DNA of 64,000 bases, from the IMG/VR virus record IMGVR_UViG_3300025132_000025; one strand, written 5' to 3'. The stretch is from an uncultured virus (IMG/VR IMGVR_UViG_3300025132_000025) (Duplodnaviria > Heunggongvirae > Uroviricota > Caudoviricetes). Each line of letters begins with the position of its first letter. Position 1 is the stretch's first letter. The position numbers were made by a program, and so were the translations under genes. The notes beneath the pieces were generated by a model. The model did not search any database. It worked only from the letters and a program-made list of their open reading frames with translations, and was not told the DNA's origin. This document shows, piece by piece, positions 1,531 through 38,116 of this stretch.

Positions 1531-1819
1531 TTATCAAGAAGTAAATAGATACAAAATACAACTACAAGAATCTCTAGGAGATACACAAACACAGATAGAA
1601 TTCTGGAAAAAGAATGATAATCCTGATAATATTGTAGAAATGTATGAAGAACTAGAGGCTGAGATCGAACGAGATATTAAACAGGCTGATGTAAATCTTA
1701 CTGCTTTTGCGACTAACGAGATAGAGCCAGGAACGGGTGTATTTACAAATGCAAACTTTAGTACTGCTAAAGGTTTTGAGTTTGGAAAAAGTATAACACA
1801 ACACGGGTATAATGAGTAA
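1523..1819 (+). CDS. Hypothetical protein (98 aa)
   Basis: ORF overlapping both neighbours by 8 nt (translational coupling). Confidence 0.7.
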   Translation: MSDYQEVNRYKIQLQESLGDTQTQIEFWKKNDNPDNIVEMYEELEAEIERDIKQADVNLTAFATNEIEPGTGVFTNANFSTAKGFEFGKSITQHGYNE

Positions 1820-3503
1820 GAAGTCTAGTAAACGTAGATTAAATCCTACCCCTAGGAAGAAACCACATCAGTTTACTCTTCCTGGTGGAAGTACTATGAC
1901 GTTTCGTACCAGAGAAGAAATGTTGAGAGTAAAATCTCTTTATGAGATATTTCAACTTCCTGGTAAAGACAATAAGCCTCAAAAAACTAATATGGATGTA
2001 GCAGTTCGTATGACTTCAGATAATCCGCTTTTAAAACCTAAACTCACTAAGGCTCAACAACCGATAATTGATCTTAAGGTTATACCTACTGAAGAGTTTG
2101 AAAAAAAGTATAAAAGAACTGCGGCGGGAGATATGAAAAAAGTATCATCAGTTAATCCTTATGGTAAAATTAAAGCTACCCCAAAAAAGAAAGAAGAGAA
2201 AAAAGAGACACCACCAAAGGACTGGGTAGGACCTCCGTATACAGAAGAGGAACTATTACCACAGAATATAAGGTATACAAAGGCTCTTAATAATATTCAG
2301 AGCACAACTTGTACCAGTTGTACAGGTACTGACGGGAAATATGTTGCAGTGAATGATTGTGATGGTAATGGGCCATACTTTTTTCCGTGTGCCATATTTG
2401 AAGATACTACTCCAACTAATGCTATATTAGGAATACCAGTATCTTGTGCTGGTCCAGGTAATCCATATTATTATGCTTGTCAGAACCCTTGTTGGGGATC
2501 TCAATGGGTACCAATATTAATCGATGATTGTCTGCAAGGATGGAATGAATGCGCATCATTAAAACAAGATCCTGTATGCATTACTACAGCACCTACATGC
2601 GCTACACCAGGAATAGCTCAATCAGTTAGTCCTTCTTCTTCGGCATTAGATCCTTGTGCATGTGTTGTTGGATATGTTACAAATGGTTCTTTTGCTAGTG
2701 GTTGGGACCCAAACAGAGGGTTTTGGGTTATGCCTAGCACACTAACTAATCCAGGAGTTGGTTCTCAATTAATGGGTGAACAAGATGCATTTAATCTGAT
2801 AGTTAATGCAACTTCAGGCGCTCCTTATAATCTTACTGCCCCTGTATCTTCATCTGGTAGTATTGCTAAATTTGGGACTAAAATATATACTTCATTTGTT
2901 TACTATGGTACGCAAGGTAATCCTAACATTCACAGAATGGCTGAGGTTGAAATAGATCCGGGAGGTACAACTATAGTTTTTAGTAATATGTATACTGAAA
3001 CCCCTACTGCAAGTGCTTTTAGCCCTGGTGCCGCACTTTGTGCAAAAAATGCTACTACTCTTTTCAATGTTGTGGGTACTAATGTAGAACAGTTAACCCT
3101 AGATCCAGCAACAAATTCATTTACAAGAACCGTTCTATTTAATACAGTTGCCCAAACAGCTGGTGATATAGTATATGATCCATTTACTAATACTGTATGG
3201 ATTGCACAAATAGATTCTACTATAACTCACTATAATATGTCAGGAACTGTTTTAGGAGTTGTTGCACTTCCTCCAAGTTCAACTGTAATTTCAATGTGGT
3301 GTGAAGCTGGAGAAGTTTTATTCTATGTACCAGCAGGAGCACCAGCAGGCGGATTTAAGAAAATAGATAAAACAAATTATACTTTGATTCCTCTTGGTTC
3401 TTCCACACCTCTAATAGGTGTAGGAGGAGATGCGGCATCAGATCCTAATTGCTGCGGACAAGCTGTACAACCAACAATATGTGCAACACCTGGACAAATA
3501 TAA
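1812..3503 (+). CDS. 563-aa protein: basic N-terminus, Cys-rich middle, probable C-terminal beta-propeller
   Basis: K/R/P-rich first ~150 aa; many Cys; repeated short beta strands (e.g. AGDIVYDPFTNTVWIA). Confidence 0.65.
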   Translation: MSKKSSKRRLNPTPRKKPHQFTLPGGSTMTFRTREEMLRVKSLYEIFQLPGKDNKPQKTNMDVAVRMTSDNPLLKPKLTKAQQPIIDLKVIPTEEFEKKYKRTAAGDMKKVSSVNPYGKIKATPKKKEEKKETPPKDWVGPPYTEEELLPQNIRYTKALNNIQSTTCTSCTGTDGKYVAVNDCDGNGPYFFPCAIFEDTTPTNAILGIPVSCAGPGNPYYYACQNPCWGSQWVPILIDDCLQGWNECASLKQDPVCITTAPTCATPGIAQSVSPSSSALDPCACVVGYVTNGSFASGWDPNRGFWVMPSTLTNPGVGSQLMGEQDAFNLIVNATSGAPYNLTAPVSSSGSIAKFGTKIYTSFVYYGTQGNPNIHRMAEVEIDPGGTTIVFSNMYTETPTASAFSPGAALCAKNATTLFNVVGTNVEQLTLDPATNSFTRTVLFNTVAQTAGDIVYDPFTNTVWIAQIDSTITHYNMSGTVLGVVALPPSSTVISMWCEAGEVLFYVPAGAPAGGFKKIDKTNYTLIPLGSSTPLIGVGGDAASDPNCCGQAVQPTICATPGQI

Positions 3504-4065: not shown

Positions 4066-4416
4066 ATGGGATGCGGATGCAACAAAAATAAAAAGGCTCA
4101 GAAGTCTACAATAACTAAACAGGGTTATACAAAACCGGCGAAAGATATTCAGCCAGTTCAAACAAATAATACTGATCAGGGTCCAAGCCTTCTAAAGAAA
4201 GCTATGAATTTTGGTGAGGCTATTGCTAATCATGTGGCAGACGGTATGACTAAAGTAGATAAGAATGAACTATCAGCTAGATTATCTATTTGTGGAAAAT
4301 GCATACATAATCATAATGGTACTTGTAATAAGTGTGGATGTATACTTACTACAAAAGCTGCCTGGAGATCATCAGATTGTCCAGAAGGCTACTGGCCTAA
4401 TGCAAAAACAGAATAA
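4066..4416 (+). CDS. Cys-rich putative zinc-binding protein (DUF6171-like)
   Basis: RLSICGKC...CNKCGCILTTKA...CPEGYW pattern; N-terminal MGCGC. Confidence 0.6.
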   Translation: MGCGCNKNKKAQKSTITKQGYTKPAKDIQPVQTNNTDQGPSLLKKAMNFGEAIANHVADGMTKVDKNELSARLSICGKCIHNHNGTCNKCGCILTTKAAWRSSDCPEGYWPNAKTE

Positions 4417-4909: not shown

Positions 4910-5992
4910 ATGAAATATATAATCTCTTTACTACTAATAGTATTAATACCCTTCTTATCACAAGCACAGGGATTTTTTAAGTACAGTACTTTCTACATTT
5001 CGGGGAGTGCAAATACTCCTTTAAAGGAACAACCAAATTATCAGATTAATAGAGTGACAGGAGAATACCTAGATCTTACAGAAGTTAATCCATATAATTA
5101 TAATCTTACTATTGGAGTAAGAAAGATCGCACGGTTTGATTATGAGAATCGTGCAAATGTATTTTATGATGGTACTGAAAATACAATTAGTAATAAAGCT
5201 CCTACAGGCGCGGTCGGAGGATTTGATTATTTAGGTAATTTCTCTATGGTAAGAAATAGAGGAGAAGAATTCATGAATCATAATTATTGGGTAAGATATG
5301 TACATAAACATTTTCTTGTTAAAGTAAATTATGAAGATAACCAGGATATAGAATTAAAACATTTTGGGGGAGAGGTTAGAGCAAAAGTATCAACAGGTGG
5401 TTTTGATTTTACTGTTGGTGCAAAACATAGAACTCATCCAGTTTATGGGTATGTTCCTTTTGAAGAGAATTTTAATTTAGACGAAGATCCTTGGTGGACT
5501 ATTGCATATGATTTAGGATATGTAGATGAATATTATTATGTAGACGGAGAAGATAATGGAGTTGATGATTGGTATGATTATTATAATTGGAATTGGTATG
5601 CACCAGATGGAACGTGGATTGCTGAAACTGATGAGGAATTTATGAAATATCATTTTGGAAGAGCTATCAATCAATACAATAAACAAACATTACGCAACAT
5701 TGGATTACAACAAGAAATGTCTGCTGTATTAGGAATAGCTTATTATCATTATACACCAAAATTTTGGTTACACACGTGGGCAGATGTATTGCCATGGCAT
5801 AAAGGATTAACAGATTATGCATATAGAAATATGGTATTAGATGATCGTAAAGAAGTTGATTATGATACAGGATTGATCATCGGTACTAAATTAAGTAGGA
5901 AGCTAGGTATGTTTTTAGAAGGATCATACCAACGCTATTGGGGAATAGAAAATTACAGAATAAAAGCGGGGATTAACTTTATAATATTATAA
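4910..5992 (+). CDS. Secreted outer-membrane beta-barrel-like protein
   Basis: Signal peptide MKYIISLLLIVLIPFLSQA; alternating aromatic beta strands; C-terminal YRIKAGINFIIL resembles a beta-signal. Confidence 0.6.
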   Translation: MKYIISLLLIVLIPFLSQAQGFFKYSTFYISGSANTPLKEQPNYQINRVTGEYLDLTEVNPYNYNLTIGVRKIARFDYENRANVFYDGTENTISNKAPTGAVGGFDYLGNFSMVRNRGEEFMNHNYWVRYVHKHFLVKVNYEDNQDIELKHFGGEVRAKVSTGGFDFTVGAKHRTHPVYGYVPFEENFNLDEDPWWTIAYDLGYVDEYYYVDGEDNGVDDWYDYYNWNWYAPDGTWIAETDEEFMKYHFGRAINQYNKQTLRNIGLQQEMSAVLGIAYYHYTPKFWLHTWADVLPWHKGLTDYAYRNMVLDDRKEVDYDTGLIIGTKLSRKLGMFLEGSYQRYWGIENYRIKAGINFIIL

Positions 5993-5997
5993 CATGA

Positions 5998-6276
5998 ATG
6001 GCAAAGCAAATTGGGGAAAACACAAAAGTAACACTAGATCTAAAAACATTAGGGATCATAGTGGCAGGAATAGTATCATTGGTAGGTATGTGGTTTGCGC
6101 TACAGGCGGATATTGAGGAAGCAAAAGAATTACCAAAACCACCACCACCAGAGGTAACTAGAATGGAGTATGATTTAAAAGATCAAATGATAAGAGAAAC
6201 GATCTTAAATACTCAGGAAGATGTAACCGAAATTAAAGAAACTATTGAAAAGATAGAAGAAAAATTATATGAATAA
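5998..6276 (+). CDS. Single-TM membrane protein with C-terminal coiled coil
   Basis: LGIIVAGIVSLVGMWFAL TM segment, PKPPPP linker, heptad-like tail. Confidence 0.7.
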   Translation: MAKQIGENTKVTLDLKTLGIIVAGIVSLVGMWFALQADIEEAKELPKPPPPEVTRMEYDLKDQMIRETILNTQEDVTEIKETIEKIEEKLYE

Positions 6277-6689
6277 TGGAAGAAAAAACTACTGAGATAG
6301 GGACATACATTTATTATATTTTAATAATGATATTTGTGTTTCTTGTGAGTGTAAGATCAAGTCACGCGCAAGCAACACTAGTAGATGATAATTATAAAAA
6401 GATAAATAATGGAACATCTGTTGTTGAATTCTGGGCTCCCTGGAATGAAGTTAATATGTGTTCAAGTTGGATGGTAGATATTACAGGCGCGACCTATTAC
6501 ATTATGAGTGTGGAAAGTCAAACAGCAAAAGACTTAAAAATTAAAGTACTTCCTACATTGATTGTGTTTAATGATGGAATGGAAGTAGCGCGATTTGAAG
6601 GTAATATCAAATTCCAGCTATGTCCGAAAAGAACACCCAAAAAAGTTCAGGGTGCAATAAATGAACTTGACAATTTAAATAGATATTAA
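6276..6689 (+). CDS. Exported thioredoxin-fold protein lacking CxxC
   Basis: N-terminal hydrophobic signal; VVEFWAPWNEVNMC in place of WAxWCxxC; cis-Pro region VLPTLIVFNDGMEVARFEG. Confidence 0.7.
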   Translation: MEEKTTEIGTYIYYILIMIFVFLVSVRSSHAQATLVDDNYKKINNGTSVVEFWAPWNEVNMCSSWMVDITGATYYIMSVESQTAKDLKIKVLPTLIVFNDGMEVARFEGNIKFQLCPKRTPKKVQGAINELDNLNRY

Positions 6690-6913
6690 TGAAGAAATTT
6701 TTAGAAATATTTAAAGATGATAATGACTGGAATGAAAAAGCTATTGTAGGCTTTATTGCATTTGTGATTATGATTTTAATAATGCTAGCCGATATGATTA
6801 CAGGCTGGTGTGGTAAAGATTTAGTAATAAATGAATTTGTTTATGACTCTTTCCTATTCTTAGTATTAGGATGTTTTGGAATAGCAGGTATAGAAAAATT
6901 CGCAAAAAAATAA
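6689..6913 (+). CDS. Two-TM small membrane protein, holin candidate
   Basis: Two hydrophobic helices and a basic C-terminus; upstream of the endolysin. Confidence 0.55.
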   Translation: MKKFLEIFKDDNDWNEKAIVGFIAFVIMILIMLADMITGWCGKDLVINEFVYDSFLFLVLGCFGIAGIEKFAKK

Positions 6914-6918
6914 AAATA

Positions 6919-7032
6919 ATGAAAATTAAATTTTGTAAATGGATAAAAGCTATAACCTTTGGTTTAGTTTGTTTAGAATGGTGTATAAAACCTGAGACAT
7001 GTGATCAGGGAGATAAATGTTGCAAAGCCTAA
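6919..7032 (+). CDS. Small Cys-rich peptide (37 aa) absent from the ORF track
   Basis: MKIKFCKWIKAITFGLVCLEWCIKPETCDQGDKCCKA*; fills the gap exactly, and its TAA overlaps the endolysin ATG (TAATG at 7030-7034). Confidence 0.6.
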   Translation: MKIKFCKWIKAITFGLVCLEWCIKPETCDQGDKCCKA

Positions 7033-7505
7033 TGAAGTTGGGTAGAATTAGTACTCATGTGAGTTATCGTGAAGGAGTGCGTAGTAGAACTGCAGACAGA
7101 TTAGGATTAGAAAATAATCCTAATACTGAGCAACTAAAATGCATGAAAGATATAGCTGAAGGTTTATTTGAACCTTTAAGAAAGTGGGTTGGTGGCCCAA
7201 TAAAAATTAATAGTTTTTTCAGAGGGGAGCCACTTAATACTGCTATCGGGGGAAGTAAAAGATCTCAGCATATGAAAGGTCAAGCTATGGATCTTGATGA
7301 TACATTTGGGCATAAAACAAATGCAGAAATGTATTACTATATAAAAGATAATTTAGATTTTGATCAAATGGTTTGGGAATTCGGAGACGATGATAATCCT
7401 AACTGGATACACGTAAGTTATGTGACGCATAGGCCTAACAGAAAGAAGCTAACTGTAGCATTAAAAAGAGACGGTAAAACCGTATACGAACATAGAGAAA
7501 AATAA
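7032..7505 (+). CDS. Endolysin, peptidase M15A family
   Basis: NSFFR...N..IGGS..SQHMKGQAMD...WIHVSY zinc-peptidase motifs; start placed at 7032 because of the TAATG coupling. Confidence 0.85.
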   Translation: MKLGRISTHVSYREGVRSRTADRLGLENNPNTEQLKCMKDIAEGLFEPLRKWVGGPIKINSFFRGEPLNTAIGGSKRSQHMKGQAMDLDDTFGHKTNAEMYYYIKDNLDFDQMVWEFGDDDNPNWIHVSYVTHRPNRKKLTVALKRDGKTVYEHREK

Positions 7506-7506
7506 T

Positions 7507-9525
7507 ATGAATCATTTTCAAATAGTCCCACATTTTGTAAACACCAGAGAGTTTTCTTGTGAAGCTAAAAATTTTATTAAAAATGGATACTACACAAGTT
7601 CACCTCCTGGTACTTATGCATTTCGAGAATATTGGGATGAACAAACTCGTAGATGTATGGAAGGCTATGAGGTTGGGGGAGTTAGGATAACAGGTGCTCA
7701 CTACTTCTACCTAAATTTTACACAGATAAAAGCGACAGTAAAACAAGGTAAAATAGAGAGAAAGATCCTAACGTTTCCATCATTTCTAGATATGGATTAT
7801 TATTACTTTATGGAGGTAGAGCTAGCTAGACAAAATGGTCAAGGTATTATTGTAGCAAAAGCTCGACGTAAGGGATTCTCTTATAAGAATGGTGCATTAT
7901 GTGTATATCAGTATAATTTCTTTAGAGATTCTACAAGTATTATCGGTGCTTACCTTAATGAATATTCTGGGGCTACTATGAGTATGGCATTTGAAATGTT
8001 AAACTTTATCAATAAACATACTGCATGGGCAAAGCGTAGAAATCCTGATAGAAGAGATTTTGTTAAAGCTAGATTTAAAGAAGTAATAGATGGTCAAGAA
8101 GTTTGGAATGGTTATAATAGTGAAATATTCACATTAACATTTAAGGATAACTTCTCTGCAGCTATTGGTAAAACTGCCGATTTAATGTTATTTGAGGAGG
8201 CCGGAAAATTCCCTAATCTTATTAATGCATATATGGTAACGGCACCAGTATTTAGAGATGGTAATGTTATGATTGGTATGCCACTAATATTCGGAACAGG
8301 GGGAGATATGGATGGAGGATCTAATGATTTTGCTGAGATGTTTTATAATCCAGAAAAGTATTGGTTACGTCCTTATGAAAATATTTGGGATGATGGAGGA
8401 GCAGGAACTAATGCAGGATTCTTTATTGATGATATGTGGTATAAGCCTGGAAAGGTAACTATAGAAAAGACGGGCGAAGTAGTTAGTATGGTAGATGAAG
8501 ATGGTAACTCAAATAGAGAAGCTGCTGAAGCATTCTTAGATCAGGAACGTAGGATATTAAAAACTACAGATTCGAGAACTACTTGGGAAAAATATATTAC
8601 ACAGTCACCAAAGACTCCAAGAGAAGCTTTCTTAAAAACTAGTGGAAATATATTCCCTACTATTGAATTAAATGCTTGGCTGGCTGAACTTGAAGTTACA
8701 AAAAAAGCTCAAGACATGGCTATGGTTGGTGAGTTATATTGGGAAAAGGATACAGTAAAGTGGATGCCTAATAATGATTTAAAGCCTATAAATAAATTCC
8801 CATTAAAACCAAATGAGGATAAAGAAGGTTGTGTAGTTATATGGGAACACCCTTTTAGAGATGATAGTGGATCGAGTCCTTTTGGATTATATATTGCAGG
8901 GACTGACCCATATGATCAAGATGATTCTACAACAAGCTCTTTGGGAAGTACATTTATATATAAGACTTTCCAAAAGTTTGATAAGACTTATAATCTGCCA
9001 GTAGCAGAATATACTGGTAGACCAGAAACCGCAAAAGAATATTATGAGAATATTAGAAAACTTCTCACATATTATAATGCGCAAACCTTATATGAGAATA
9101 ACTTAAAAGGTTTGAAAATATATTTTGAGCAGAAAAAATGTTTACATTTATTAAAAGCTCAACCAAGTATACTAAAAGATATTGTAAATAGAACTACAGT
9201 AGCTAGAGGTTATGGAGTACATATGAGTCAGCCTATAAAAGTACAGGCGGAAATATATTTGAGAGATTGGTTGCTAGAAAAAAGAGCCGATGGTGAAGAT
9301 GGTAATGATAAATTAAATTTACATTCTATACTCTCTGTACCATTACTAAAAGAATTGATAGCGTATGATAAAGATGGTAACTTTGACCGCGCGATAGCAT
9401 TTATGTTATGTATTTTACATTCACATGAAAACTATCATATTGATTTAGAAGCTCAGTTTGATTATGGGCTTGGTGATAAATTCTGGCGCACTTCGCACTT
9501 TAAAAAGAGAAAAGTGCGATTTTAA
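7507..9525 (+). CDS. terL: Terminase large subunit
   Basis: Walker A KARRKGFSY, Walker B LMLFEEAG, GTGGD coupling motif, nuclease IAGTDPY...NFDRAIA; crAss-type. Confidence 0.95.
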   Translation: MNHFQIVPHFVNTREFSCEAKNFIKNGYYTSSPPGTYAFREYWDEQTRRCMEGYEVGGVRITGAHYFYLNFTQIKATVKQGKIERKILTFPSFLDMDYYYFMEVELARQNGQGIIVAKARRKGFSYKNGALCVYQYNFFRDSTSIIGAYLNEYSGATMSMAFEMLNFINKHTAWAKRRNPDRRDFVKARFKEVIDGQEVWNGYNSEIFTLTFKDNFSAAIGKTADLMLFEEAGKFPNLINAYMVTAPVFRDGNVMIGMPLIFGTGGDMDGGSNDFAEMFYNPEKYWLRPYENIWDDGGAGTNAGFFIDDMWYKPGKVTIEKTGEVVSMVDEDGNSNREAAEAFLDQERRILKTTDSRTTWEKYITQSPKTPREAFLKTSGNIFPTIELNAWLAELEVTKKAQDMAMVGELYWEKDTVKWMPNNDLKPINKFPLKPNEDKEGCVVIWEHPFRDDSGSSPFGLYIAGTDPYDQDDSTTSSLGSTFIYKTFQKFDKTYNLPVAEYTGRPETAKEYYENIRKLLTYYNAQTLYENNLKGLKIYFEQKKCLHLLKAQPSILKDIVNRTTVARGYGVHMSQPIKVQAEIYLRDWLLEKRADGEDGNDKLNLHSILSVPLLKELIAYDKDGNFDRAIAFMLCILHSHENYHIDLEAQFDYGLGDKFWRTSHFKKRKVRF

Positions 9526-9548
9526 ATGAATTTTTAAATAAATTTATA

Positions 9549-9556
9549 TACTTTTG
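9549..9556 (+). promoter_or_regulatory. Bacteroidota -7 promoter element (TACTTTTG) before the portal gene
   Basis: TAnnTTTG match in a 52-nt intergenic gap. Confidence 0.65.
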
Positions 9557-9577
9557 TAAATTAATTAAATACGGACA

Positions 9578-12073
9578 ATGGAAGATAACATGGGATCATA
9601 TATTTTGGGAGATCTGCCTAGACAGAAATTACCCCGAAGTAAGAAAGGAAAAAAGTGGGGTCGTACTTGTATAGACGAGCTCGAGAAAATTACGTACGGG
9701 GATGTACAGTATAATGGAAGATCATCTAGATTTAAAAAACAAATTAATTATGATTTGTTTAATGGTAAATTAGATCAGCAAGATTTTCAATATGTATTAA
9801 ATCCGTTTGGATTTAGTGAAGGGGAGTTCCCTGCAACAATGCAGCATTATGATATTATATCTCCAAAACTCCAATTATTAATGGGGGAAGAAATAAAACG
9901 TCCATTTAATTTTAAAGTAGTAACTCATGATCCCGAGGCTATTTCTAAATTAGAAGAGATGAAGAAAGAAATGATGATGCAGTTTCTTTATAGTGTTGTT
10001 GTTAGTCCAGAAGAAGAAGCGGCACAGCAACAAGAACTTCAACAGTTGCAGCAAACAGATCCAGAAGCTGCGGCAGCATATCAACCAAAGACTCCGGCAC
10101 AGATTGAAAAATATATTAACTATGAATATAGAGATATAAAAGAAGTAACAGCTCAGGGTATATTAGAATATCTAAAAAGAGATCAAGATCTAGAACTTAA
10201 ATTTAATCAAGGTTTTAAAGATGCATTAATTGCTGGTGAAGAAATTTATTATGTAGGAGATGTAGCAGGTAATCCTACTGTACGGTTATGTAATCCTCTT
10301 GATATTAGAGTTATATTAGATCCAGATTCTCCGTGGATAGAAGACTCTCAAGCAGTAATAGAAGAAAGATGGTTAACTTTATCTACAGTTATAGATGAAT
10401 TTTATCAAGATTTAGAGCCTGCAGAAATTGATAGACTGGAAAAAGGTCCAGGCGGTAGAAATGATAATATGGAAAGTGGTAATGGATTAAACTATCCATA
10501 TAGTGAATTTAATATTGTTAACTATGAAAGATTAGATACAGTAGGGAGCGGGGTTTTTGATCCTGGTATGATTAGAACATACAGAAGAAATGGAATGATT
10601 AGGGTTCTACAAGTAGAATGGAAGTCTATGAGAAAGATTGGTATTGTAACATATACGGATGAAGCGGGTCAGATACAGGAAGATGTAGTAGACGAAATCT
10701 TTGAAGTTCCGGACTATGCTGAGAAGAAAGGAAAGCAATGGATGTTTGATGGAGTAGTGTTGCAATGGTATTGGATAAGTGAATATTGGGAAGGGACTAA
10801 AATCGGAGAAGATATTTACGTTAATGTTCAGCCAAAGAAAAACCAGCGTAGAGATATGACAAATCCTAGTGATGTTAAATCTGGTTATGTTGGATATATA
10901 TATAATGAAAGAAATTCAGAATCTATATCATTAATTGATAGGATGAAACCTTTCCAGTACCTGTATAATATAATTTATTATAGAACAGAATTAGCTATTG
11001 CTAAATCAAAAGGTAAGGTAGCTTTAATGGATATTTCTCAAATACCAGCATCTGAAGGTTGGGATGTATCTAAGTGGATGTACTACTTAGAGTCTATGGG
11101 AGTAATGTTTATTAATTCTAGGGAAGAAGGTAATAGATCTAGAGATGCGGCTCCGTTTAATCAGTTTCAAAGTATAGATTTATCTATGGGTAATTATATT
11201 AATACTCATGTACAATTACTAGATGCAATTAAAACTGAACTTGGTGAATTATCAGGAGTTAGTAGACAAAGACAGGGTCAAGTACAAACATCAGAATTAG
11301 TTGGTAATACTGAAAGAGCTGTGGTACAGTCTTCACATATTACTGAATTCTGGTTCTATTCTCATAACGAATGTAAGAAAAGAGTATTAACTGCATTATT
11401 AGATGTAGCTAAAATGTCTTATAGAACAGGAAAGAAAATTCAATATTTAGGAGATGATATGATGAGAACTTTCTTAAATGTAGATTCAGAAGATTTTACT
11501 AATTCAAGTTATGGAGTATTTGTTTCAAACTCTTCAAAAGACGACAGAGCATTAGAATCATTAAAGTCTTTAGCACAAGCTGCATTACAAGCAGGAGTAG
11601 TAAGTTTTACAGATGTAGCTACTATTTTACAATCTGAGTCTATGACTAAGGTTAGAAAAATGTTAGAAACAGCTCAGATGGAGATGGAGCAAAAACAAGC
11701 TCAAGCTCAACAAGCAGAACAACAAGCTGCTCAACAAGCTCAACAAATGCAAATGCAGATGGAGCAAGAGAAAGAGAATAGAGAAGATGCTCGTAAAACT
11801 CAAGATAACGAAACTAAAATTAAAGTTGCTATGATTAATGCAGAAGCTAGAATGATTGATGCGGATCATAATAATGATGGTTATGTAGATCGTAAAGAAG
11901 CTCAAGCAGGAGCGGCTGATGCAAAATCAAATGTTGAGGCACAGCTTGCTCGAGAAAAAATGCAAGGAGAATTAGGATTGAAAAAAGCTGAGTTAGATGA
12001 AAAGAAAAGAGCTAATAAAGCAGAAGAGGGTATAAAGAGAACAGCAGCTAAAAACAAACCTAATGCACAGTAA
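9578..12073 (+). CDS. Portal protein
   Basis: 831 aa directly after TerL; crAss-type portal features (LPRQKLP, HYDIISPK..LLMGEE, SLIDRMKPFQYLYNI, GVSRQRQGQ) and Q-rich C-terminal coil. Confidence 0.9.
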   Translation: MEDNMGSYILGDLPRQKLPRSKKGKKWGRTCIDELEKITYGDVQYNGRSSRFKKQINYDLFNGKLDQQDFQYVLNPFGFSEGEFPATMQHYDIISPKLQLLMGEEIKRPFNFKVVTHDPEAISKLEEMKKEMMMQFLYSVVVSPEEEAAQQQELQQLQQTDPEAAAAYQPKTPAQIEKYINYEYRDIKEVTAQGILEYLKRDQDLELKFNQGFKDALIAGEEIYYVGDVAGNPTVRLCNPLDIRVILDPDSPWIEDSQAVIEERWLTLSTVIDEFYQDLEPAEIDRLEKGPGGRNDNMESGNGLNYPYSEFNIVNYERLDTVGSGVFDPGMIRTYRRNGMIRVLQVEWKSMRKIGIVTYTDEAGQIQEDVVDEIFEVPDYAEKKGKQWMFDGVVLQWYWISEYWEGTKIGEDIYVNVQPKKNQRRDMTNPSDVKSGYVGYIYNERNSESISLIDRMKPFQYLYNIIYYRTELAIAKSKGKVALMDISQIPASEGWDVSKWMYYLESMGVMFINSREEGNRSRDAAPFNQFQSIDLSMGNYINTHVQLLDAIKTELGELSGVSRQRQGQVQTSELVGNTERAVVQSSHITEFWFYSHNECKKRVLTALLDVAKMSYRTGKKIQYLGDDMMRTFLNVDSEDFTNSSYGVFVSNSSKDDRALESLKSLAQAALQAGVVSFTDVATILQSESMTKVRKMLETAQMEMEQKQAQAQQAEQQAAQQAQQMQMQMEQEKENREDARKTQDNETKIKVAMINAEARMIDADHNNDGYVDRKEAQAGAADAKSNVEAQLAREKMQGELGLKKAELDEKKRANKAEEGIKRTAAKNKPNAQ

Positions 12074-21977: not shown

Positions 21978-24900
21978 ATGGCTCAAGAAGATTTTCAAAA
22001 ATGGTTTACCGGATTTCGTATGAAGACGAGTACTGTAGGGGGAGCAACTCCACCTATAAACTCAAACGTTCCTGATAGGGAAGCCAACTTTTCTACAGCA
22101 ACAGTAACAGCTCGTACTGCTATGACTATAGGTGGTGAGACCTATAATGCTGGAGATGTTATGGCTTTTTCTGATGGTCATTATATTTACAATAGGACTG
22201 CTAATGTTATGGGCGGTGCTCTTAATACTGGAAGTATAAAGAGTATGCCACAATCTGTTTCTATTGTTCCTGTTCCTGATTTTTTAGCTCAAAATATTGG
22301 TGGTACAGATTATAGAGGTAAGTTATTTTGGGTATTTTCTAACGGTCATCATAATGGAATAAGGATTGGAGTAATTGATATGACCCAAAATAGTGGATTA
22401 GGAGAGTTTAAAAACTATGCACAATCTGCACAGACACCACCAAGCGGTATATTAGGAACATTAAAAGATTCAGAAAGAGGTATAGGAGGTCGTATGACTG
22501 TTATCTGTAGAAGAGGAATGAAAGGATCCGACTCACAGGAGGAAGGTTATTGGGTTATTGCAAAACAAGCTACTAAAGCTACTGATACATTTAATGATAA
22601 TGGATGGTATGTATGGGCAATAACTAGTATAAATACTACTACTAAATTTCCTACAATATCTTCAGGGCCTGCAATAACTCCAGTAGTAAGTAATGTAGGT
22701 ACAAACTATACTGGTTGGGAAGATAATGGGCCACATGGTATAGTTGATGCTACACCTCTAGAAATTAGCCCTACTGCTGTAAATGATCATAAACTAGCAA
22801 CAATTTATAGAGCTACAGTTGGTACATCTGTACTTACACAAGAAAATGATACTGTAGAAGTACTTACATTTAATGGTACTACAGGAGCTATAACTAATCC
22901 AACAACAAAAATTACAAAAGGTTTTGATAAGGGGCCTCTAGGGTGGCCAGCTCCAGTTAGCCAGCCCGCAAGATATTATAATATGTATGTTTGTTGGTCT
23001 CATGATAGTACAGCTACAACAGGTTATCTTTATTATGGTAATTATAATGTACCTGCAGCAGCTCCAGGAACTCCTGGATTACAAATTCTATGGAATGAGA
23101 TAAATAATTTAAATGTATGGTCTCTTACGAATTTAGGATCTCTAGAAGTAGAGGATAATTCAGGTACTAATATATGGAATTCTATAGGACCTGGTAGAAT
23201 TATTGGAGGTATTTGGAGAGATCCTCAAAAAGTGGGAAGAATATTTGTATCTACTCCTGAACAAACACAACAATATACACTAGCAGTAAGTTCTTCATCT
23301 CCAGTTTGGAGTATGGATTATCCAGAAATATATGGAACAGCCACTGTTGGAGTAGCGAATCCGATCCAGCATTGTATTATAGAAAATGCTGATGATCCTG
23401 TGACTACTAATCCAACTTTATCTATGGTTGGAACACTTGATAATGCAACATATTATAAGTATGGAGCTCCTCAATTTACTATTTGCGCTACAACAGCTCC
23501 TACATCTCCAGATATATCAATAAAAAAATGTGTTGGAAGACAGTATGTATTAGATACAGAAGGCTCACTTTATATATTAGATACAGCAGCTCCTGCTAGT
23601 ACAGTAAATCAAGTTACTACTTTTGGAGGTCTTACTAATTTAGTTGGTATGAGTATTAATCAATATACTGATCAACATTTTATATGGAGTTCTCCTACCG
23701 GAGGAAACAGTATAAGCTATTCAAAATTTAATAGTGATACAAGTTTAGTAGCAAATCCAGTAGCTATTGGGGGAGGTAACTTGGCTACATATGCAGATAT
23801 TCCAGTTATGGCATCTTCAACAGGCTGGGTTAATGCAGCAGGTTCAGGAACATCTAATGCAGCTTCGTTATGTAAAACGCAGGAAGGACTAGGATTAAAA
23901 GCTGGAAGTACTACTTTATATAGTTATGTTGAAATAGATACAGATGCTAATACAATAAACACTTATAATGCAGCCGCACAAATAGATATATCATCAGCTT
24001 TTAGTGGAGCTTTAGCTGGTAAAACCCCTACAGCAGCAGTAGTTTATAAAGATCACTCTACAGCAACGATTAAACAATTATGGGTAGCTTTTGGAGATAG
24101 AATAGCTTACCTTAACCGCTTAACTAATTCATGGACATTAGTTACAGCTACAGCCCCAGCAAATATTACTGCTTTACAAATTACGAATAGTGGAGCAACA
24201 CCAACTATATGGGTATATTCAGGGGCTGCAGGATCAACAATTAGTCATTCAGGAGTTCCTTCTGCAGGGGCTGGATTTACATTTACAGCTTTTGCAACTT
24301 CTATTATTACCGATCCTGGAAGCTTTCCATGGTTAAAACTTCCTATATCTATAGGGGGCCAAAATGCTGCCCAGTATTTTGATCATTCTCCTTTACGTAT
24401 AACTTCATCACATCCTGACTATTTAGTTTATGAATCTACTTGTGATGATGCATTAAATGACACTTGGAAACAAGCTGTTACAGGTGAACATAGAGGATGT
24501 TTTTATTGTGGTGGTGAGATTACAGACTGGAAGCATGATGTTACATGTGATTGGCTTTTACCTGATCAAACTTTTTCACAATGTAGATTTTGTGTAGAAG
24601 ATTTATTTGATGAGTGTGTTGCATTATACCCATGTTGTAATATAGAAACTGACCCACCTTTAACGAGTGGTATGGGTCCAGTAGAGCTACCTGGTATTGT
24701 AACAAATACAGGATCAGTTACTGTAGGTAATACATACTCAGCTAGTGCAGGTGGAGCTACACCTGTTTGTTCAGTAGCTGTAACTCCAGAGAATCATTTT
24801 TGGTTTACCTCTGAAGATGGTAATATATATTCAATAGATAATTCAATACTAGGAACTTGTTCAATTTCTGCATTTTCTGTACAGAATGGTCTTATACCAG

Positions 24901-27900
24901 ATTTAAAAGATGTAACTTTTGATAAGCATGGTAATGTTATATATACATCAAGTGTATCAGATATATCTTGGGCATCCGCTTTAACAGTAAATTATATATC
25001 ACCTGGAGAACTTATTTCAAATACATTTAATGTACCTCAATGTTTAGATTATGATTATTCTGCTACAGGGCATATTGTAGGAGGAGATATGGTAGCAGCA
25101 GTTGCTACATTTACTAGATATACAAATTCTTTAGGTGGAGGTTTAGCTATAGCTACTACTGTAACTAATGCTACAATTAGCTTAGGGTATGATTTAACTG
25201 TTGATTATAATAGTGGTGATTACTTTGTACTAGGAGATGAGACTGGAGGAGGAGGTTTAAATAAATTACTTAGTATCGATGATGCTAATGGTAATCATAC
25301 ATTAATATCTGATATAGCTACTGTTTGTAGTTTTGTAGCAGGTCAAAATGCATATGGTATAGAAAGAATTAGAACGGCTCAATCAACAAGTGCTATGTAT
25401 GTTCTATCTGCTATACAAATAGGATTAGGTCCTATTGAAATATACCTACACGAATTAACGGATGATGGAAGTACTCAAGTATCTGTAATACCATTAACTA
25501 ATCCAGTAACAGCAACAAATAGCTGGACTAACATTCCTACTGGACTAGGTTATAATGATGTATGTTCGAAATGGCCAAATAATATAGATCCAAATCTAAC
25601 TAATTATACTGATTGTAATACATGTATTTCTGATCCAAGCACAGAAGATTGTTGTTATAAATTAACAAACTGTGATACAGGAGCTATACAATATAGTACT
25701 CAAGGTTTATTAGATCCTTATGTTGGAGGTGTAATAAGACTTACAGGAGATACATGTTGGGAGGTAGAAAGATCTTTATACTGCAATAGTCCAGTAACAG
25801 TAATCCCAGCAACCTCTCCTGGCCCTTATGCAGACTGTGCAGCATGTGATGTACCAGACCCTATTTACTATAAATTACCTAAATGTGGAGATGCTAGTAA
25901 TGTTGTGTATACAGTTAATGGAGCAACAGCTGTATCAACTCCAGGTATAGATGGTTATTTTGCAGCAGGAGTAGTAGTTAACTTAACTGGAGAATGCTTC
26001 TGTAGAGAAGTACAACTTAATCCTTCAGGCCCACAAGGAACTGAAGCTAATTTAAGTGTAGCAAGTACACAAGTTGATTGTGCTAATTGTATATATTACT
26101 TAAGAGTTGAAGATTGTGTTACCGGTGCTATAATTAATGTTGATTATGCGTCATCAACAACACTTCATCCTTTCATAGGAGCAGCTAATGCCCATGATAT
26201 TACAATAGGAGGAGTAGCTCAAGATAACTGTTTTAAAGTATTAGTAGGCTGTATAGGCCCTACAACAGTAACATATCCTACTGCAGCTATAACTGCAAGT
26301 TACGCTGATTGTGCAGCATGTGCGACTGCAGGTCAAACATGTGTAAAAGTATCACATTGTTGTGGAACTAGTTATGTACCAGATCAAATTGTTAATGTAA
26401 CAACAGGAATTACAGCAGCAGATGTTGGAGCAGTAGTACAAGCAGATATAACAGTAGCTGGTGTTATTTATACAGGGTGTTGGACAGTAAGTGCTAATGC
26501 TGATTGTGTAGGTGTATTACCAGACGCAGATGTAAATGCAATTAATACTGCAACAGTAGGTACAGGTAATATGCCAGATTGTACTTATTGTTTAATTGAT
26601 CCATGTCCTTTAGAATGTACACTACTAGAATCATGTACTGATCCAGGTATTACTATTACTGTATCAGGAGGATTAGGAAATAGTATTGGAACAGATGTCG
26701 TAGAATTATCTGGACAATTAGGATGTTGGAAACAATGTTTAACATCAGGAAATCCAATAGCAGGTACACATTGGTTCTATGGAGAAAGGCTCGGAATAGA
26801 TTTTAGTTCGGGAGCACCTGTGTCTGATATGAATGGAATGTCTGATATGCTTACTTACAACGCTAGTAATGCTATAGGTGCTGATGCTTGGACATTTAGA
26901 GGATCAGCAGTTCACTCTGCAACAGAAGCCGCTACTCTAGGTGGACACGCTTTTGCGGCAGGAGATTTAATGTTCTATACTGACGGTCATTATATATATG
27001 ATAGAACTCATACTAAGATGAACCTTGATTCGGGAGCTGTACATAAAGGAGATGCAAATGTAGGAACAGTAGGTGATGATGGAAAAACATTCCCAGCTCA
27101 AGGAGCATTAGTTATACCAAATGCAGCAGGAGGATTAGTAGGAAATGTATGGAAACAATATTATGTTATACAAAATTCATGTCATAATGGTCCTATAAAA
27201 TGGTCTATTGTTGATATGACTTTAAACAGTGGAAAAGGAGAAGTATTAGCTGCATCGGCTAATACTACATTAGTAGCAAGTGCCGCTGAGATGATGTGTG
27301 TTAATACTACAACTGGAATAGGATCAGGAGCTTACTGGCATTTCTTCTTTATACCTCCTATGGCTAATGGTACTGACCTTAATAATCAGAATATTCAAGC
27401 TATTAAATTTAGTAACGCCGGAATAGGTACACCTTTTATGGCAGTAGATATGCCATTTGGTAGATGGGATTCTTCCAATATCCAGTTTTCAGGAGAGATG
27501 GTGGTTAATCAAACAAATGATATTATAGCAATAAGAACAAATCAGTCAAAAACTGGATTTAATCAAAACTGGATATTGCATGTTTGGGGGCTAAACCCTA
27601 CTACAGCGTTATCTGCTACAGCTACTACTGGATTAATCAGTAATGATGGCTGGAATGCAGGAGCTCAAAATGGAGCATATTCTTGGATTCTAGGAGGATC
27701 TTACCAAGAACAAAATGTTACATTTGGAGGATATACTGGATTTTTAGGTATGGATAAACCTAGGACTCTAGCATTTAGTGCGGGTGGAGACTACCTCATT
27801 TACGCATATGCAAATTATTATGAGCCTTCTGATCCATTTAATTTACCTTTAGTTCAATCTGGATGGGGTCTAAATGTGATGAAAATAAAAGACTATGCAA

Positions 27901-30900
27901 ATGAATTAATGATTACAAATGGATGGGTAACGCCTAGTTCAACTAATGATGGAAATACCTTTGATACTGATCCTAATAAATATATGTTTTCTTTCCCTGT
28001 TGTTGGTTCTTCCCCAAATACGACACTTTCCCAAAAAACATTCCCTGACGCTTCTACTGCTAGTGGATGGTTAGGAGGAACTCCGCCAGATGAAACTAGA
28101 TGTAATGTTGCAATTACAGATATGACTATGGGTCCTGATAATAACTTATGGTTATCTATGGTAGAATGGACTCAAGATGATATATATAAATTATCAATAG
28201 GACAAGGACAACAGGTTACAAATTCTCTATTAAGACTTAGTAATCCTACTAGTGGTGTATCAATAGAAGATCAATTAACATTTGTAACTCCAGTAGGATC
28301 ATTTGATATTGGTAATAGACGAATGGGAGAAAGATTCCCAGTATGGTTAAATATGCCTTGTCCGTGTGATCCGGCAAATGTTATAAGCCCAGATCCTACA
28401 ATTACAGCTACACATACTGATTGTACAGATTGTGCACCTCCACCAAACTTCTGTTATAAATTAACAGAATGTGAATGTACTGGAGGGACATCAGGATATA
28501 ATCAATGTGCTGTAAATGATCCAGCTACAATGCCTGCTCCTATGGTTACATACGGAAAGAGTTGGTCACCAACTTGTACTTCTGGAAATGTAACTCAAAG
28601 ATGGCAAGCAATAGTAAATGCAGTACAAGCATTAGGAACTACTGCATCACCAGGTATAGCACAAACAGTAAACTTTAGCTATAGCTTTATTAATGATGGG
28701 GCTACATTCCCATTAGGAGGAGGGTATCCAGGATTTGGACCAGCTAAAGCTGTAGAACAAGGGCCAGGTACAGCTAATCCAACAGGTACTAGTAGTGCAT
28801 GTGCTCCTTATAATAAAACATATCAAATTACATTTGTACAGTTTAGAGCAGAAATGGTAACAATGTTTAATAACATTAAAGCTATGTTCGAAGGAATGTT
28901 TAATACAAATTGTGGATATGGAGCTAACCTAACTGTTAACTTTACAGATTTAGGATATGAAACTGGATATACTGCAGGTGATCCAGCAATGGGAACAAAT
29001 ACTATAGCAAGTTCTAATGGAACATCTTTTACTGATAGTAATGGAGTAGCAGGAATAGGAGACTTTAGAATTGGTTTTGCAGACTTCGGAGCTATAGATG
29101 GCCCTTGTGGAAATACAGGAGCAGCGTCAGGAATATTAGGATTATGCTTTACAGGAGATATAAATAATAATAACCCAGGAATTGCTAAAACTTCTCCGTA
29201 TGTAGGTTTATTATTATTCGATGCAAATGAAGATTGGAGAAAAGCAGGAGATGCCGTAGTAGCAAATTCATTTGATTTAATCAGAGTAGGTATACACGAA
29301 ATACTACACGCATTTGGATATGGTCATGATTTCTTAACCTTTGGTCCTCAAGCTGCAAATTGTGATTGTCCTTGTTATCAATCTGATTCTACATGCCCTA
29401 GTATGTATCCAACACCAGCTGGAGTTATTCCTAATGGTGATGCTTTGATGGGACCATTTGCAACCACTGCTTCTTTTGGTACTGTATTCCCAACTGGTCT
29501 TATGGGCCCAGAAGGAATATATGATAGAAGAGCTACATGTGGTATTTACGGAAATGATGATCCAAACTATGCATGTCAAGATGGAGTATGTTTAGGTAGT
29601 GGATGTACATATATTACAGAATACTCTGATGATCCAGCGCTTTCAGCATATGTAGGAGGAATAATAACTTGGGATAATGGAGATGCAGCAGGAGAAAGAT
29701 GTTGGACTGTTGAAATAGAAAACCCATGTCCAGCAGGAGTTCCACTAGTTAATCCTGTAAATTTAGTTTCAGGAAACCCAACTGGAGATTGTGATGATTG
29801 TGATCCAGTAAGTCCATGTTGGACATTAGATTTATGTAGTTGTGATACTAGTATGGGAGCACCAGCTCAAATAATTACTACTACAGATATGTCAGGATAT
29901 TGTGACGGAACAATAGGTACAGGAACTGTAGTAGAAATAGATCTATACCCAGGAGCATGTTATGAAATAAATTGTGCGGGACCAGATCCTTGTCCTGCAG
30001 CTGGAACAGTCGCTGTTGTAGTTACAAATACATATCCAGCTTGTGTAGACTGTTGTAGTTCAACGCAAACATGTTATCAATTATGTCCTTGTACCCCTAG
30101 TTATGACTCGTGTAGTGCAGCAACTTTAATATCTACTACTATTGCAGGATATTCACAAAATTATCAGGAATATTCCGTAAATACTCCAACTGATACGCAT
30201 AACAGTAAAAAGTTAATTACTGGTTCACTGCCTAGCAGCTCAGGTGTATGTTATGATAATGTTACTGGAAACGCTATAGCTAGATTGCAAGGAATACGTA
30301 TTTATAAATGTGGTACTATGAATGATCCATTAGATGGTATGACTAATTATTATTGGAGTCAAGCTCAGAGTTGGTCTACAGCTAGAGCTGAACTAGTAGC
30401 AGCAGGTTATGGTAATGCTACTATGGATTATGATACAATGAAAGCATGGTTGCAAGCCAACTATGTTAGTCTGGATGGAACATTAGCTTGTTTTGCAATA
30501 AATGGAGGGCTTTGTTTCTGTAATAGTACTTGTACTGTAGTAACAAATGATCTATCTGGTCAATTAGGAGATGTAGTAACACTAGGAGGAGCGCCACCAG
30601 CACCATTAAATACAACTGAATGTTATGAAGTTCAGGCATGTGGTACATGTGGAACAGGTTCATGTAACCCAGTAGGAGCAGTTGTTATAAATACAGTTCA
30701 TCCAAATTGTCCAGATTGTGTAGCTGGTGGAGGATGTATTTGTTATAAATTAACAGATTGTTCAGATCCAAACATTGTTATTAATAATGTATGCCAGAGT
30801 GCGGCATTAGATACAGCATTTATAAATGGAGATATAATACAAATAAATGGAAACACTCAAACTTGTTGGGAAATAGACTGTGATGATAATAATATGTGTG

Positions 30901-33909: not shown

Positions 33910-34128
33910 ATGACGAAAAGAAGAATTTCAAACACAGAACTACATGAAAATATCCAGGATATTAAAGATGACGTTAGATTTATTAAAGCTAAACTTTTAG
34001 ATCCGGATACAGGAGTGACAGCTCGTGTAAATAGAAATACTTCGTTTCGTAAATCAACAACAAAAGTACTTTGGTCTATTTGGATAGCGCTTGCGGGAGT
34101 GCTTACCAAAATGCTATTCTGGGAATAA
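33910..34128 (+). CDS. Small protein with coiled coil and C-terminal TM helix (holin-like)
   Basis: VLWSIWIALAGVLTKMLFW TM segment. Confidence 0.55.
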   Translation: MTKRRISNTELHENIQDIKDDVRFIKAKLLDPDTGVTARVNRNTSFRKSTTKVLWSIWIALAGVLTKMLFWE

Positions 34129-34694
34129 TGAAATCTGATCCTAAAATATATATTATTTTAGGTCTGTTTGTATATATACTGTTCCTTCAGAATTGTTCAG
34201 ACACGCCAAAAGTTATCGATGAGATAACTACAGAAGTACATACTGATACGACTAGGATTACTGTTGTGGATACTGTTCAATTTGTTGATACAGTTATCCG
34301 CAAAGTAATCGTCAAAGTTACTGAGCCGGTTAAAATAGAAGGTAATATTAATGAATATGTTAATGAGTTTAGTGATAGTTTAATATCAGGAGAGGTTTGG
34401 ACTAGAGTAAATGGTAAGCTACTAGATCAGTCTTTTGATTATATTCCGAGTTTTCCTCAGTATATAATCCAAACTGATACAGTAATTATAAATACTAATC
34501 AAACTACTACAATTAGAAAAACTAATTTTAGTTTGAATGCGGGCATAGAGGTAGGAGGAAGTGTTGACAAATTTAACTTTTCTCCTATTGTGGGTTTTAC
34601 TACAAAGAAGAGCAATTCATATTTTTATAGATATGGAGTTCTTGATAAAACACACAGTATTGGAATAATGTATAATTTTAAAATAAACAAATAG
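34128..34694 (+). CDS. Membrane-anchored spanin-like protein (start moved to 34128)
   Basis: TAATG coupling; MKSDPKIYIILGLFVYILFLQNC hydrophobic segment ending in Cys; TDT/VDT repeats; C-terminal amphipathic beta strands. Confidence 0.5.
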   Translation: MKSDPKIYIILGLFVYILFLQNCSDTPKVIDEITTEVHTDTTRITVVDTVQFVDTVIRKVIVKVTEPVKIEGNINEYVNEFSDSLISGEVWTRVNGKLLDQSFDYIPSFPQYIIQTDTVIINTNQTTTIRKTNFSLNAGIEVGGSVDKFNFSPIVGFTTKKSNSYFYRYGVLDKTHSIGIMYNFKINK

Positions 34695-37358: not shown

Positions 37359-38116
37359 TATATAAATTTACATCCATAAAAGAAATAATAGAAGGCGTTT
37401 ATAGAGATACTGCTATCCATGAAGAGTTAGACATTTGGGACGTGATTGAATGGGGAGGAGAAGCTTTAGAACTAATAGGAGCAGGATTACAATATGAAGA
37501 ACTTGTAGCTGAGGTTTGTGTTAAAGAGCACAGATCACAGTTACCATGCAATCTTCATTTATTAGATTCTGTTTCTTATAACGGAAGTCCTCTTAAACAA
37601 TGTACAGGAACTTTCGGAGCTATCTCTACTGATCCTGGTCCAGCAGCAACTAACCAAAACTTTATTGATGGCAAGTTAGTTGATACTGAGAACTTCCCGT
37701 TAAAGGGAGCTAGCCAGAATAGAGGAGGAGATTGTTATTATGTAAACGATAATTTTATTGTTACTTCTTTTGATAGCGGATGTCTACTACTTGCTTTCCG
37801 AGGAATTAAAATAGATGATGAAGGTTTCCCTATGGTACCTGATCATGTAAGTTATAAAAAAGCTATGAAGTCTTATATAACAATGATGATAGATCGTATA
37901 GGATGGAGAAAAGGATCTGTTCCAGAAAATCTTTATAGAGATAGTCAAAGAGATTGGGAGTGGTATGTTAAACAAGCAAGGGGTGCGGCTAATATGCCTA
38001 ACTTAGATATGGTAGATAATATTAGATTGCAGTGGATGAAATTAAAACCATCTCAAACAGCTCATGGAACTTTTTATACAGACTTAGGAAATCAAGAACG
38101 TAGATTAATCGGCTAA
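37355..38116 (+). CDS. Tail tubular protein (P22 gp4-like)
   Basis: YKFTSIKEII...IEWGGEALELIG...DDEGFPMVPD..SYKKA...WEWYVKQA; synteny. Confidence 0.8.
   Translation: MIYKFTSIKEIIEGVYRDTAIHEELDIWDVIEWGGEALELIGAGLQYEELVAEVCVKEHRSQLPCNLHLLDSVSYNGSPLKQCTGTFGAISTDPGPAATNQNFIDGKLVDTENFPLKGASQNRGGDCYYVNDNFIVTSFDSGCLLLAFRGIKIDDEGFPMVPDHVSYKKAMKSYITMMIDRIGWRKGSVPENLYRDSQRDWEWYVKQARGAANMPNLDMVDNIRLQWMKLKPSQTAHGTFYTDLGNQERRLIG

Follow-up and report, generated by a model that had tools for sequence, protein, structure and literature searches.

The six genes at positions 4910 to 7505 of an uncultured tailed-virus sequence (IMG/VR record IMGVR_UViG_3300025132_000025) can firmly be identified as a lysis cassette with an M15 endolysin, and comparison with related loci revealed that the constant part of this cassette is a pair of small, adjacent genes, here called B and C, while the endolysin and holin genes are exchangeable. 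B specifies an inner-membrane protein, and C an exported protein of thioredoxin fold in which asparagines stand in place of the two catalytic cysteines. The window analyzed is a stretch of 64,000 nucleotides, that is, 64 kb of a viral record of 65,972 bases with an estimated completeness of 75%, and every long open reading frame (ORF) of the window is carried on the plus strand. The best explanation of the cassette, offered tentatively and given a slightly less than even chance of being right, is that F is the endolysin, D a holin-type protein, B-C a spanin-like but lipoprotein-free candidate for the outer-membrane (OM) step of lysis, A an accessory barrel, and E a clade-specific peptide, with functions assigned from gene context. 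The cassette lies directly upstream of the large terminase gene, which starts at 7507, and the features concerned are the following (TM, transmembrane).

4910-5992, plus strand: A, an exported OM beta-barrel protein of 360 aa from a phage-only family (ORF list, model, structural matches)
5998-6276, plus strand: B, a bitopic inner-membrane protein of 92 aa (ORF list, TM-like segment)
6276-6689, plus strand: C, an exported, redox-dead thioredoxin-fold protein of 137 aa (PF00085, profile search, model)
6689-6913, plus strand: D, a 74-aa protein with two TM segments and a basic C-terminus, a holin-type candidate (ORF, TM-like segments)
6919-7032, plus strand: E, a 37-aa cationic peptide with six cysteines (letters read; TAATG-coupled to F)
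7032-7505, plus strand: F, a cytoplasmic Peptidase_M15_3 endolysin of 157 aa (PF08291, phrog_894; alternative in-frame ATG at 7017)
7507-9525, plus strand: large terminase (TerL), crAss-type (phrog_6681, 3.2e-138)

The original prediction, made from the letters of the window, described six coupled genes with TAATG overlaps, and these overlaps were read at 6274-6278 (B/C), 6687-6691 (C/D), and 7030-7034 (E/F). Two gene starts were revised to the most likely ones, E from 6871 to 6919 and F from 7017 to 7032; the closest relative has exactly these forms, and the other ORFs stand as given. Its count of at least four proteins with signal or TM segments was accurate, as hydrophobic N-terminal or TM segments are present in A, B, C, and D (two in D). 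The genes upstream of the cassette, and the terminase downstream of it, are packed equally closely, so that tight packing alone does not define a module.

Conservation of the neighborhood was examined in a non-redundant set of 133 loci, pooled from 80 loci centered on A and 77 centered on C, all from one related phage group. The expected co-occurrence was borne out: the genes are found together across hundreds of contigs of marine viruses, at least 382 of which contain the B-C pair, and B and C were adjacent in 118 of 121 non-redundant loci. Iterated profiles recovered B in 69, C in 68, D in 33, and F in 29 of the A-centered loci, most of the remaining loci being cut short; in four full-length loci that had no C in the flank, C was found further along the contig in every case. 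Despite changes in gene order, C lay within 2 kb of A in 90 of 108 loci. An endolysin-family gene began no more than 60 nt from the end of C in 41 loci and within 1.5 kb downstream in 32 more (73 of 100 in total), and was not found in 21 loci of the non-redundant set. Three endolysin families were mutually exclusive among 79 loci: M15 in 29, family cl23 (phrog_33083 'endolysin', 9e-15) in 18, and family cl28 (DUF5675) in 15, with 17 having none. A 3-TM holin (cl7; phrog_3427, 4.9e-34; PF11351) was present in 39 loci, usually after the endolysin, and the holin-type genes near B-C were D alone (15 loci), cl7 alone (21), or the two together (18). Since B-C usually sits beside one of three interchangeable endolysins and a 3-TM holin, the region is a lysis cassette, and both the 'standard' part distinguished in the original prediction (endolysin and holin-type protein) and the 'extra' part (B-C) belong to it.

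In B, a short N-terminus leads into a single TM segment, followed by a linker with the sequence ELPxP and then by a helix of some 40 aa with a heptad pattern. In alignments, E57, K61, and R66 are invariant and D62 nearly so, and the helix shows the 3-4 hydrophobic spacing. Two leads from the atlas, DUF7365 and DUF2730, were unconfirmed; DUF7365 gave a sub-threshold coiled-coil match in 4 of 38 members (best E 0.039). Some relatives without A (L144, L156, L157) carry a second B-like gene between C and the endolysin, in the order B, C, B', F, holin, for example at 9727-10762 of L156.

The predicted exported thioredoxin fold without a CxxC motif was upheld by three lines of evidence. C matched PF00085 with 26 bits against a cut-off of 23.5, a profile of 38 members matched a single-domain thioredoxin among PDB sequences (1.6e-11), and the AlphaFold2 model (pLDDT 87.6) resembled Staphylococcus aureus thioredoxin by Foldseek (E 9.7e-7, TM-score 0.75, root-mean-square deviation 2.3 Å). 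The two catalytic cysteines of solved thioredoxins fall opposite N57 and N60 in the alignment, and these asparagines were invariant in 38 of 38 sequences, giving WNxxN instead of WCxxC, with the cis-Pro loop retained; P93 and T94 are likewise invariant, and the two cysteines that the window protein does have are not conserved. The remaining invariant residue, Q32, follows directly after the hydrophobic N-terminus and is the predicted first residue of the mature protein. Because both catalytic cysteines have become invariant asparagines, C is probably a periplasmic binding module and not a redox enzyme. A complex prediction for residues 38-92 of B, 32-137 of C, and 21-360 of A, the last being the scored partner, gave a score of 0.00 and a mark of 0.32, a result that is neutral on binding.

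The closest relative (locus L088, genome G010) has 88,720 bases with terminal repeats and is complete, and its gene order is that of the window. Identity to the window was 98% for TerL, 89% for B, 73% for C, 100% for D, 92% for E, and 85% for F. Ratios of nonsynonymous to synonymous substitution (dN/dS) of 0.00-0.24 for B to F (0.08 for B; 0.02 for TerL) indicate purifying selection. In the place of A (9136-9690) it carries a 2-oxoglutarate-Fe(II) oxygenase (phrog_61, 1e-43; PF13640, 3.5e-16), a PHROG of the category 'moron, auxiliary metabolic gene', while B to F are kept; the position of A is thus a variable accessory-gene slot. The only cassette families found in this genome were B, C, D, and F; it lacks the families of A, cl3 (described below), the 3-TM holin, cl23, and cl28. 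In a heuristic scan, C was its sole protein combining a signal segment with a following glutamine. More widely, 14 of the 77 C-centered loci had no A in the flank, and when the A profile was run against whole records, A was absent from all seven searched B-C records without a nearby A, three of them 100% complete, while both positive-control records matched. As A is absent from these seven records and replaced in the closest relative, it is judged to be an accessory gene, linked to the cassette in most relatives but dispensable.

B-C is proposed for the OM step because it stays constant while endolysins and holins are swapped, and because no lipoprotein o-spanin was found. No ORF of the window, and none of the complete closest-relative genome, passed a strict lipobox scan, and a relaxed scan of the window returned only E and the ORF at 34128-34694; the original prediction that the cassette is more than a textbook holin/endolysin/spanin set agrees with the lack of a lipoprotein o-spanin in both sequences. 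Bacteroides and Croceibacter phages are listed, in the available part of PMC6139136, among those without an identifiable spanin. In the proposed sequence of events, D, with its two TM segments and basic tail, would act as the holin or a holin partner and give F access to the wall. B would be anchored in the inner membrane, its proline-rich linker and coiled-coil helix reaching into the periplasm, and C, secreted by a signal of the signal-peptidase-I type, would bind through its old substrate groove (NxxN and cis-Pro loop). The pair would then deal with the OM, the third barrier in lysis, acting like a spanin but with no lipoprotein, and A may be an OM docking or weakening partner that is not required. 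A more specific form of this idea, that B holds C while the NxxN/cis-Pro groove of C grips an OM barrel (A by way of its conserved periplasmic turn, or, in phages that lack A, a barrel of the host) and so bridges the envelope once the wall is cut, is unlikely as it stands; were it correct, B-C would be a new, lipoprotein-free class of OM disruption device in Bacteroidota phages.

Several observations weigh against assigning the OM step to B-C and holin function to D. The periplasmic part of B is only about 55 residues long, which is short for a periplasm-spanning subunit, and C has no lipid anchor, so that any link of C to the OM is conjectural. Holins are usually far less conserved than D, and D may not be the main holin, given that 18 of 79 loci have it alongside the 3-TM holin. 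The endolysin gene lies upstream of C in 19 of 100 loci and more than 1.5 kb downstream in 8, and, with all loci drawn from one phage group, the shared synteny may in part reflect common descent. A, the supposed partner, is missing from the seven searched records mentioned above, and an auxiliary metabolic gene occupies its place in the closest relative. There is no conserved periplasmic cysteine in C, nor any cysteine at all in B, and the pair therefore fails two defining features of spanins, the lipoprotein and the conserved cysteine; in the accessible text of PMC6139136, about 96% of two-component spanins are said to carry periplasmic cysteines for intermolecular disulfides. Finally, a membrane pair elsewhere in the window (33910-34128 and 34128-34694) could itself be a lysis component.

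The first protein of that pair has 72 aa and a TM segment at its C-terminus; the second, whose start touches the stop of the first, has 188 aa and a lipoprotein-like N-terminus (...LFLQNC). The sole family match of the pair was that of the second gene to phrog_25644, the pair is kept in the closest relative, and it could bear on lysis or exclusion. An arrangement resembling B-C was seen in Flavobacterium phage immuto (L082, 6350-7013), where, downstream of the endolysin and holin genes, gp187, with a TM segment and coiled coil, is overlapped by gp186, which has a signal peptide (signal end ...SFSQ); no thioredoxin match was obtained.

The original proposal of a barrel candidate was sustained for A. 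Its N-terminus is a hydrophobic segment followed by ...SQAQ, the C-terminal residue is aromatic across the family (F in 63 of 79 members), and the AlphaFold2 model (pLDDT 81.8, pTM 0.72) matched only OM barrels: NanC by Foldseek (E 9.7e-6), and OmpG (Z 10.7), CymA (Z 10.1), and EstA (Z 10.1) by VIA. As modeled, A has the generic features of an OM beta-barrel, namely a signal peptide, a closed antiparallel barrel, and a C-terminal aromatic residue, with 12-14 strands as counted from the DSSP string only. No family was matched in Pfam (E 0.1), NCBIfam (E 0.05), PHROG, or PADLOC, and the named outer-membrane protein (OMP) families considered (Ail/Lom, OmpA, porins, PorP/SprF, and others) gave no profile match in Pfam or NCBIfam. 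A word-indexed search returned 511 homologues and an exhaustive profile search of 1.84 billion entries returned 402 representatives, the 150 matches listed belonging to the A family only; at least 562 viral contigs encode the protein, and its atlas neighbors are unnamed viral clusters. Neither A nor C had a tblastn match among 50,697 phage records. The best-conserved motif of A (R71, K72, A74, R75, Y78, G88, E90) sits in a 30-residue, low-confidence segment of the model between strands 2 and 3, which by standard barrel topology would be on the periplasmic side. The acidic/aromatic loop pointed out in the original prediction is present, but it proved to be clade-specific, occurring in 13 of 143 A sequences.

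In 58 of 80 loci, the gene directly after A encodes cl3 (for example, L008 4018-4728 and L057 7028-7798), an acidic secreted protein of some 230 aa that is rich in cysteine, has invariant cysteines, and contains long acidic/hydrophobic repeats; the window has no cl3 gene. A weak, sub-threshold match to a low-density-lipoprotein-receptor-A-like module was seen in 23 of 34 members (best E 4.3e-4). A suspected resemblance to cargo of the type IX secretion system was not upheld, as none of the 34 members matched a sorting-domain model in NCBIfam or Pfam at E 1. The acidic/aromatic loop of A is confined to loci without cl3 (13 of 41), and the idea that it compensates for the loss of cl3 was rejected, as the remaining 28 such loci have the short loop. 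In L001, a 139-aa signal-peptide protein encoded just past the M15 endolysin (8764-9183) matched the barrel model NF049866 below its cut-off (2.5e-5).

A serious rival to a lytic role for A, given the precedent of Lom, is that it may be a moron-type OM protein that merely resides beside the lysis genes, where it could mask or remodel a receptor for superinfection exclusion, or protect progeny from adsorbing to debris. The oxygenase found in its slot in the closest relative, its absence from three complete B-C genomes, the secreted cl3 protein that so often follows it, and a variable, clade-specific loop of the kind expected for a surface-exposed element would all suit such a role. In the available part of a preprint (10.64898/2026.10.24.761521), 1,603 phage-encoded OM barrels are reported, with lambda Lom blocking LamB as a precedent. 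Against this, A was never found without B-C (C lay in the flank in 68 loci and beyond it in all four further contigs), A lies within 2 kb of C in most loci even where gene order has changed, the best-conserved motif would face the periplasm, and A has no PADLOC match and no similarity to the 8-stranded barrels of the Lom type. On balance, a moron-type role is considered somewhat unlikely.

A second possibility is that B-C governs the timing of lysis, as an antiholin or a lysis-inhibition sensor, in the manner of a holin-binding periplasmic domain. It would account for the holin-type genes that adjoin the pair (D is right after C in the window and in the closest relative, and right before B in many loci), for the short periplasmic part of B, and for the appearance of C as a binding module. 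A regulator that binds a specific holin should change along with it, but B-C is unchanged whether D, cl7, or both are nearby, and without B-C these genomes would have no candidate for the OM step; a timing device is thus decidedly unlikely. The full model of the original prediction, in which the envelope proteins A to E assemble into one envelope-spanning machine needed as a whole, draws on co-localization, translational coupling, and the joint presence of A, B, and C in every A-containing contig with enough sequence, so that the constant company A keeps with B-C survives from it, but with A missing from complete genomes that keep B to F, E limited to the nearest clade (three contigs), and D found by hidden Markov model (HMM) in only 33 of 80 A-centered and 13 of 77 C-centered loci, it is already weakened and very improbable.

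The assignment of D as the holin-type protein is probable and comes from its context. It is small, with two TM-like segments and a charged C-terminus, is encoded near the endolysin, and is the sole 2-TM candidate in the complete closest relative, which has no gene of the 3-TM holin family; no Pfam, PHROG, or NCBIfam family was matched, and hence no holin family. There are 2129 homologue clusters, with 72-100% identity among the 120 listed, and the protein is 100% identical in the closest relative despite a pS of 0.17. Its homologue gp192 in phage immuto (42.9% identity, 9e-15) is directly upstream of the annotated endolysin and holin.

E appears to be a clade-specific, small cationic Cys peptide. 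By eye, 34 of its 37 residues are identical in the closest relative (dN/dS 0.23), and a 28-aa relative in L001 sits between the holin and the M15 endolysin. A motif scan found it in 5 of 161 loci compared with none in a shuffled control; there was no match to Pfam, PHROG, or NCBIfam, an iterative HMM search found no relatives, and tblastn gave only weak matches (best E 0.39).

The endolysin named in the original prediction was confirmed in F, which matched PF08291 (Peptidase_M15_3; 1.1e-11, 45.2 bits against a cut-off of 23.2) and phrog_894 'endolysin' (3.1e-23), and has no TM or signal segment; its start in the closest relative is the equivalent of 7032. No PDB sequence was matched at E 0.001. 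By homology it is an M15-type peptidoglycan peptidase, predicted to be without an export signal, and an H...D...H pattern read by eye presumably represents the zinc ligands of the family.

The terminase of the window matches those of gut crAss-like phages at the DNA level. A related terminase (35-44% identity) was present in all five A-family contigs tested, and the A family therefore belongs to marine crAss-like phages, of about 60-95 kb. The host is probably a member of the Bacteroidota, presumably of the class Flavobacteriia. The D homologue in a Flavobacterium phage was counted in favor of a Bacteroidota host, and the predicted mature N-termini of A and C begin with glutamine, in keeping with the 'Bacteroidetes Q rule' for substrates of signal peptidase I, as given in the accessible portion of PMC10367356. 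A scan for sigma-70 promoters and terminators gave no useful signal, with 50 promoter-like sites where 45 were expected, that consensus being inapplicable to Bacteroidota. In the gut crAss-like phage cr50_1 there are no lysis genes upstream of the terminase and hence no positional comparison.

Elsewhere in the window are three very long ORFs, at 21978-32972 (3664 aa), 38116-43680 (1854 aa), and 51044-64000 (at least 4319 aa, running past the window end), and GC skew is positive throughout. Upstream of the cassette, a Cys-rich protein of 563 aa (1812-3503) belongs to no family but is kept in the closest relative, and a Cys-rich protein of 116 aa (4066-4416) is a DUF6171 protein (PF19668, 3.2e-6; phrog_13558, 1.1e-12).

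A defined, widespread candidate such as B-C makes it testable how phages of Bacteroidota pass the OM at lysis. The contigs carrying A and B-C all derive from abundant marine crAss-like phages, and the list of phage envelope proteins gains an exported thioredoxin that is redox-dead and a barrel family confined to phages. Full-text literature searches found no account of a lysis component with either a thioredoxin fold or a beta-barrel, and B-C has no sequence similarity to any spanin PHROG.

When set against known systems, F has nothing unusual: it matches the models of both the Peptidase_M15_3 and phrog_894 endolysins and, like them, has no export signal and adjoins membrane proteins. D is similar to the small two-TM holins of class II or pinholin type in having 74 aa, two TM segments, and a short basic C-terminus, and in its position near the endolysin both here and in immuto, but it differs in lacking a holin family match, in being unusually conserved, and in often co-occurring with a separate 3-TM holin. 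E resembles the cationic lysis peptide gp28 of phiKT in being small and cationic and in belonging to the lysis genes of a spanin-less phage, but, by comparison with the available text on gp28 (bioRxiv 10.1101/515445), E is Cys-rich, 28-37 aa long, and confined to one clade. A shares a signal peptide and a C-terminal aromatic residue with phage OM barrels such as lambda Lom and the OMPs of huge phages (as far as presented in the accessible part of preprint 10.64898/2026.10.24.761521); it is distinguished from Lom-type barrels by about 12-14 strands in the model instead of 8, by the lack of a Pfam or NCBIfam OMP family, and by being embedded in the lysis cassette of a crAss-like phage of roughly 66-90 kb. 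C has the fold of classical thioredoxin (TrxA; PF00085), with detectable sequence homology and the cis-Pro loop, and departs from it in the WNxxN motif, the signal peptide, and an extra C-terminal helix, as would presumably befit a periplasmic binding protein. Compared with two-component spanins, such as lambda Rz/Rz1 and T4 PseT.3/PseT.2 (as described in the available part of PMC6139136), C is a secreted thioredoxin fold of the signal-peptidase-I type and not a lipoprotein, the pair has no conserved periplasmic cysteine, and the periplasmic part of B is short, at about 55 aa. In both systems, the first gene specifies an N-terminal TM segment and a periplasmic coiled coil, an overlapping second gene specifies an exported protein, and the pair is a part of the lysis cassette that is exchanged independently of the endolysin and holin.

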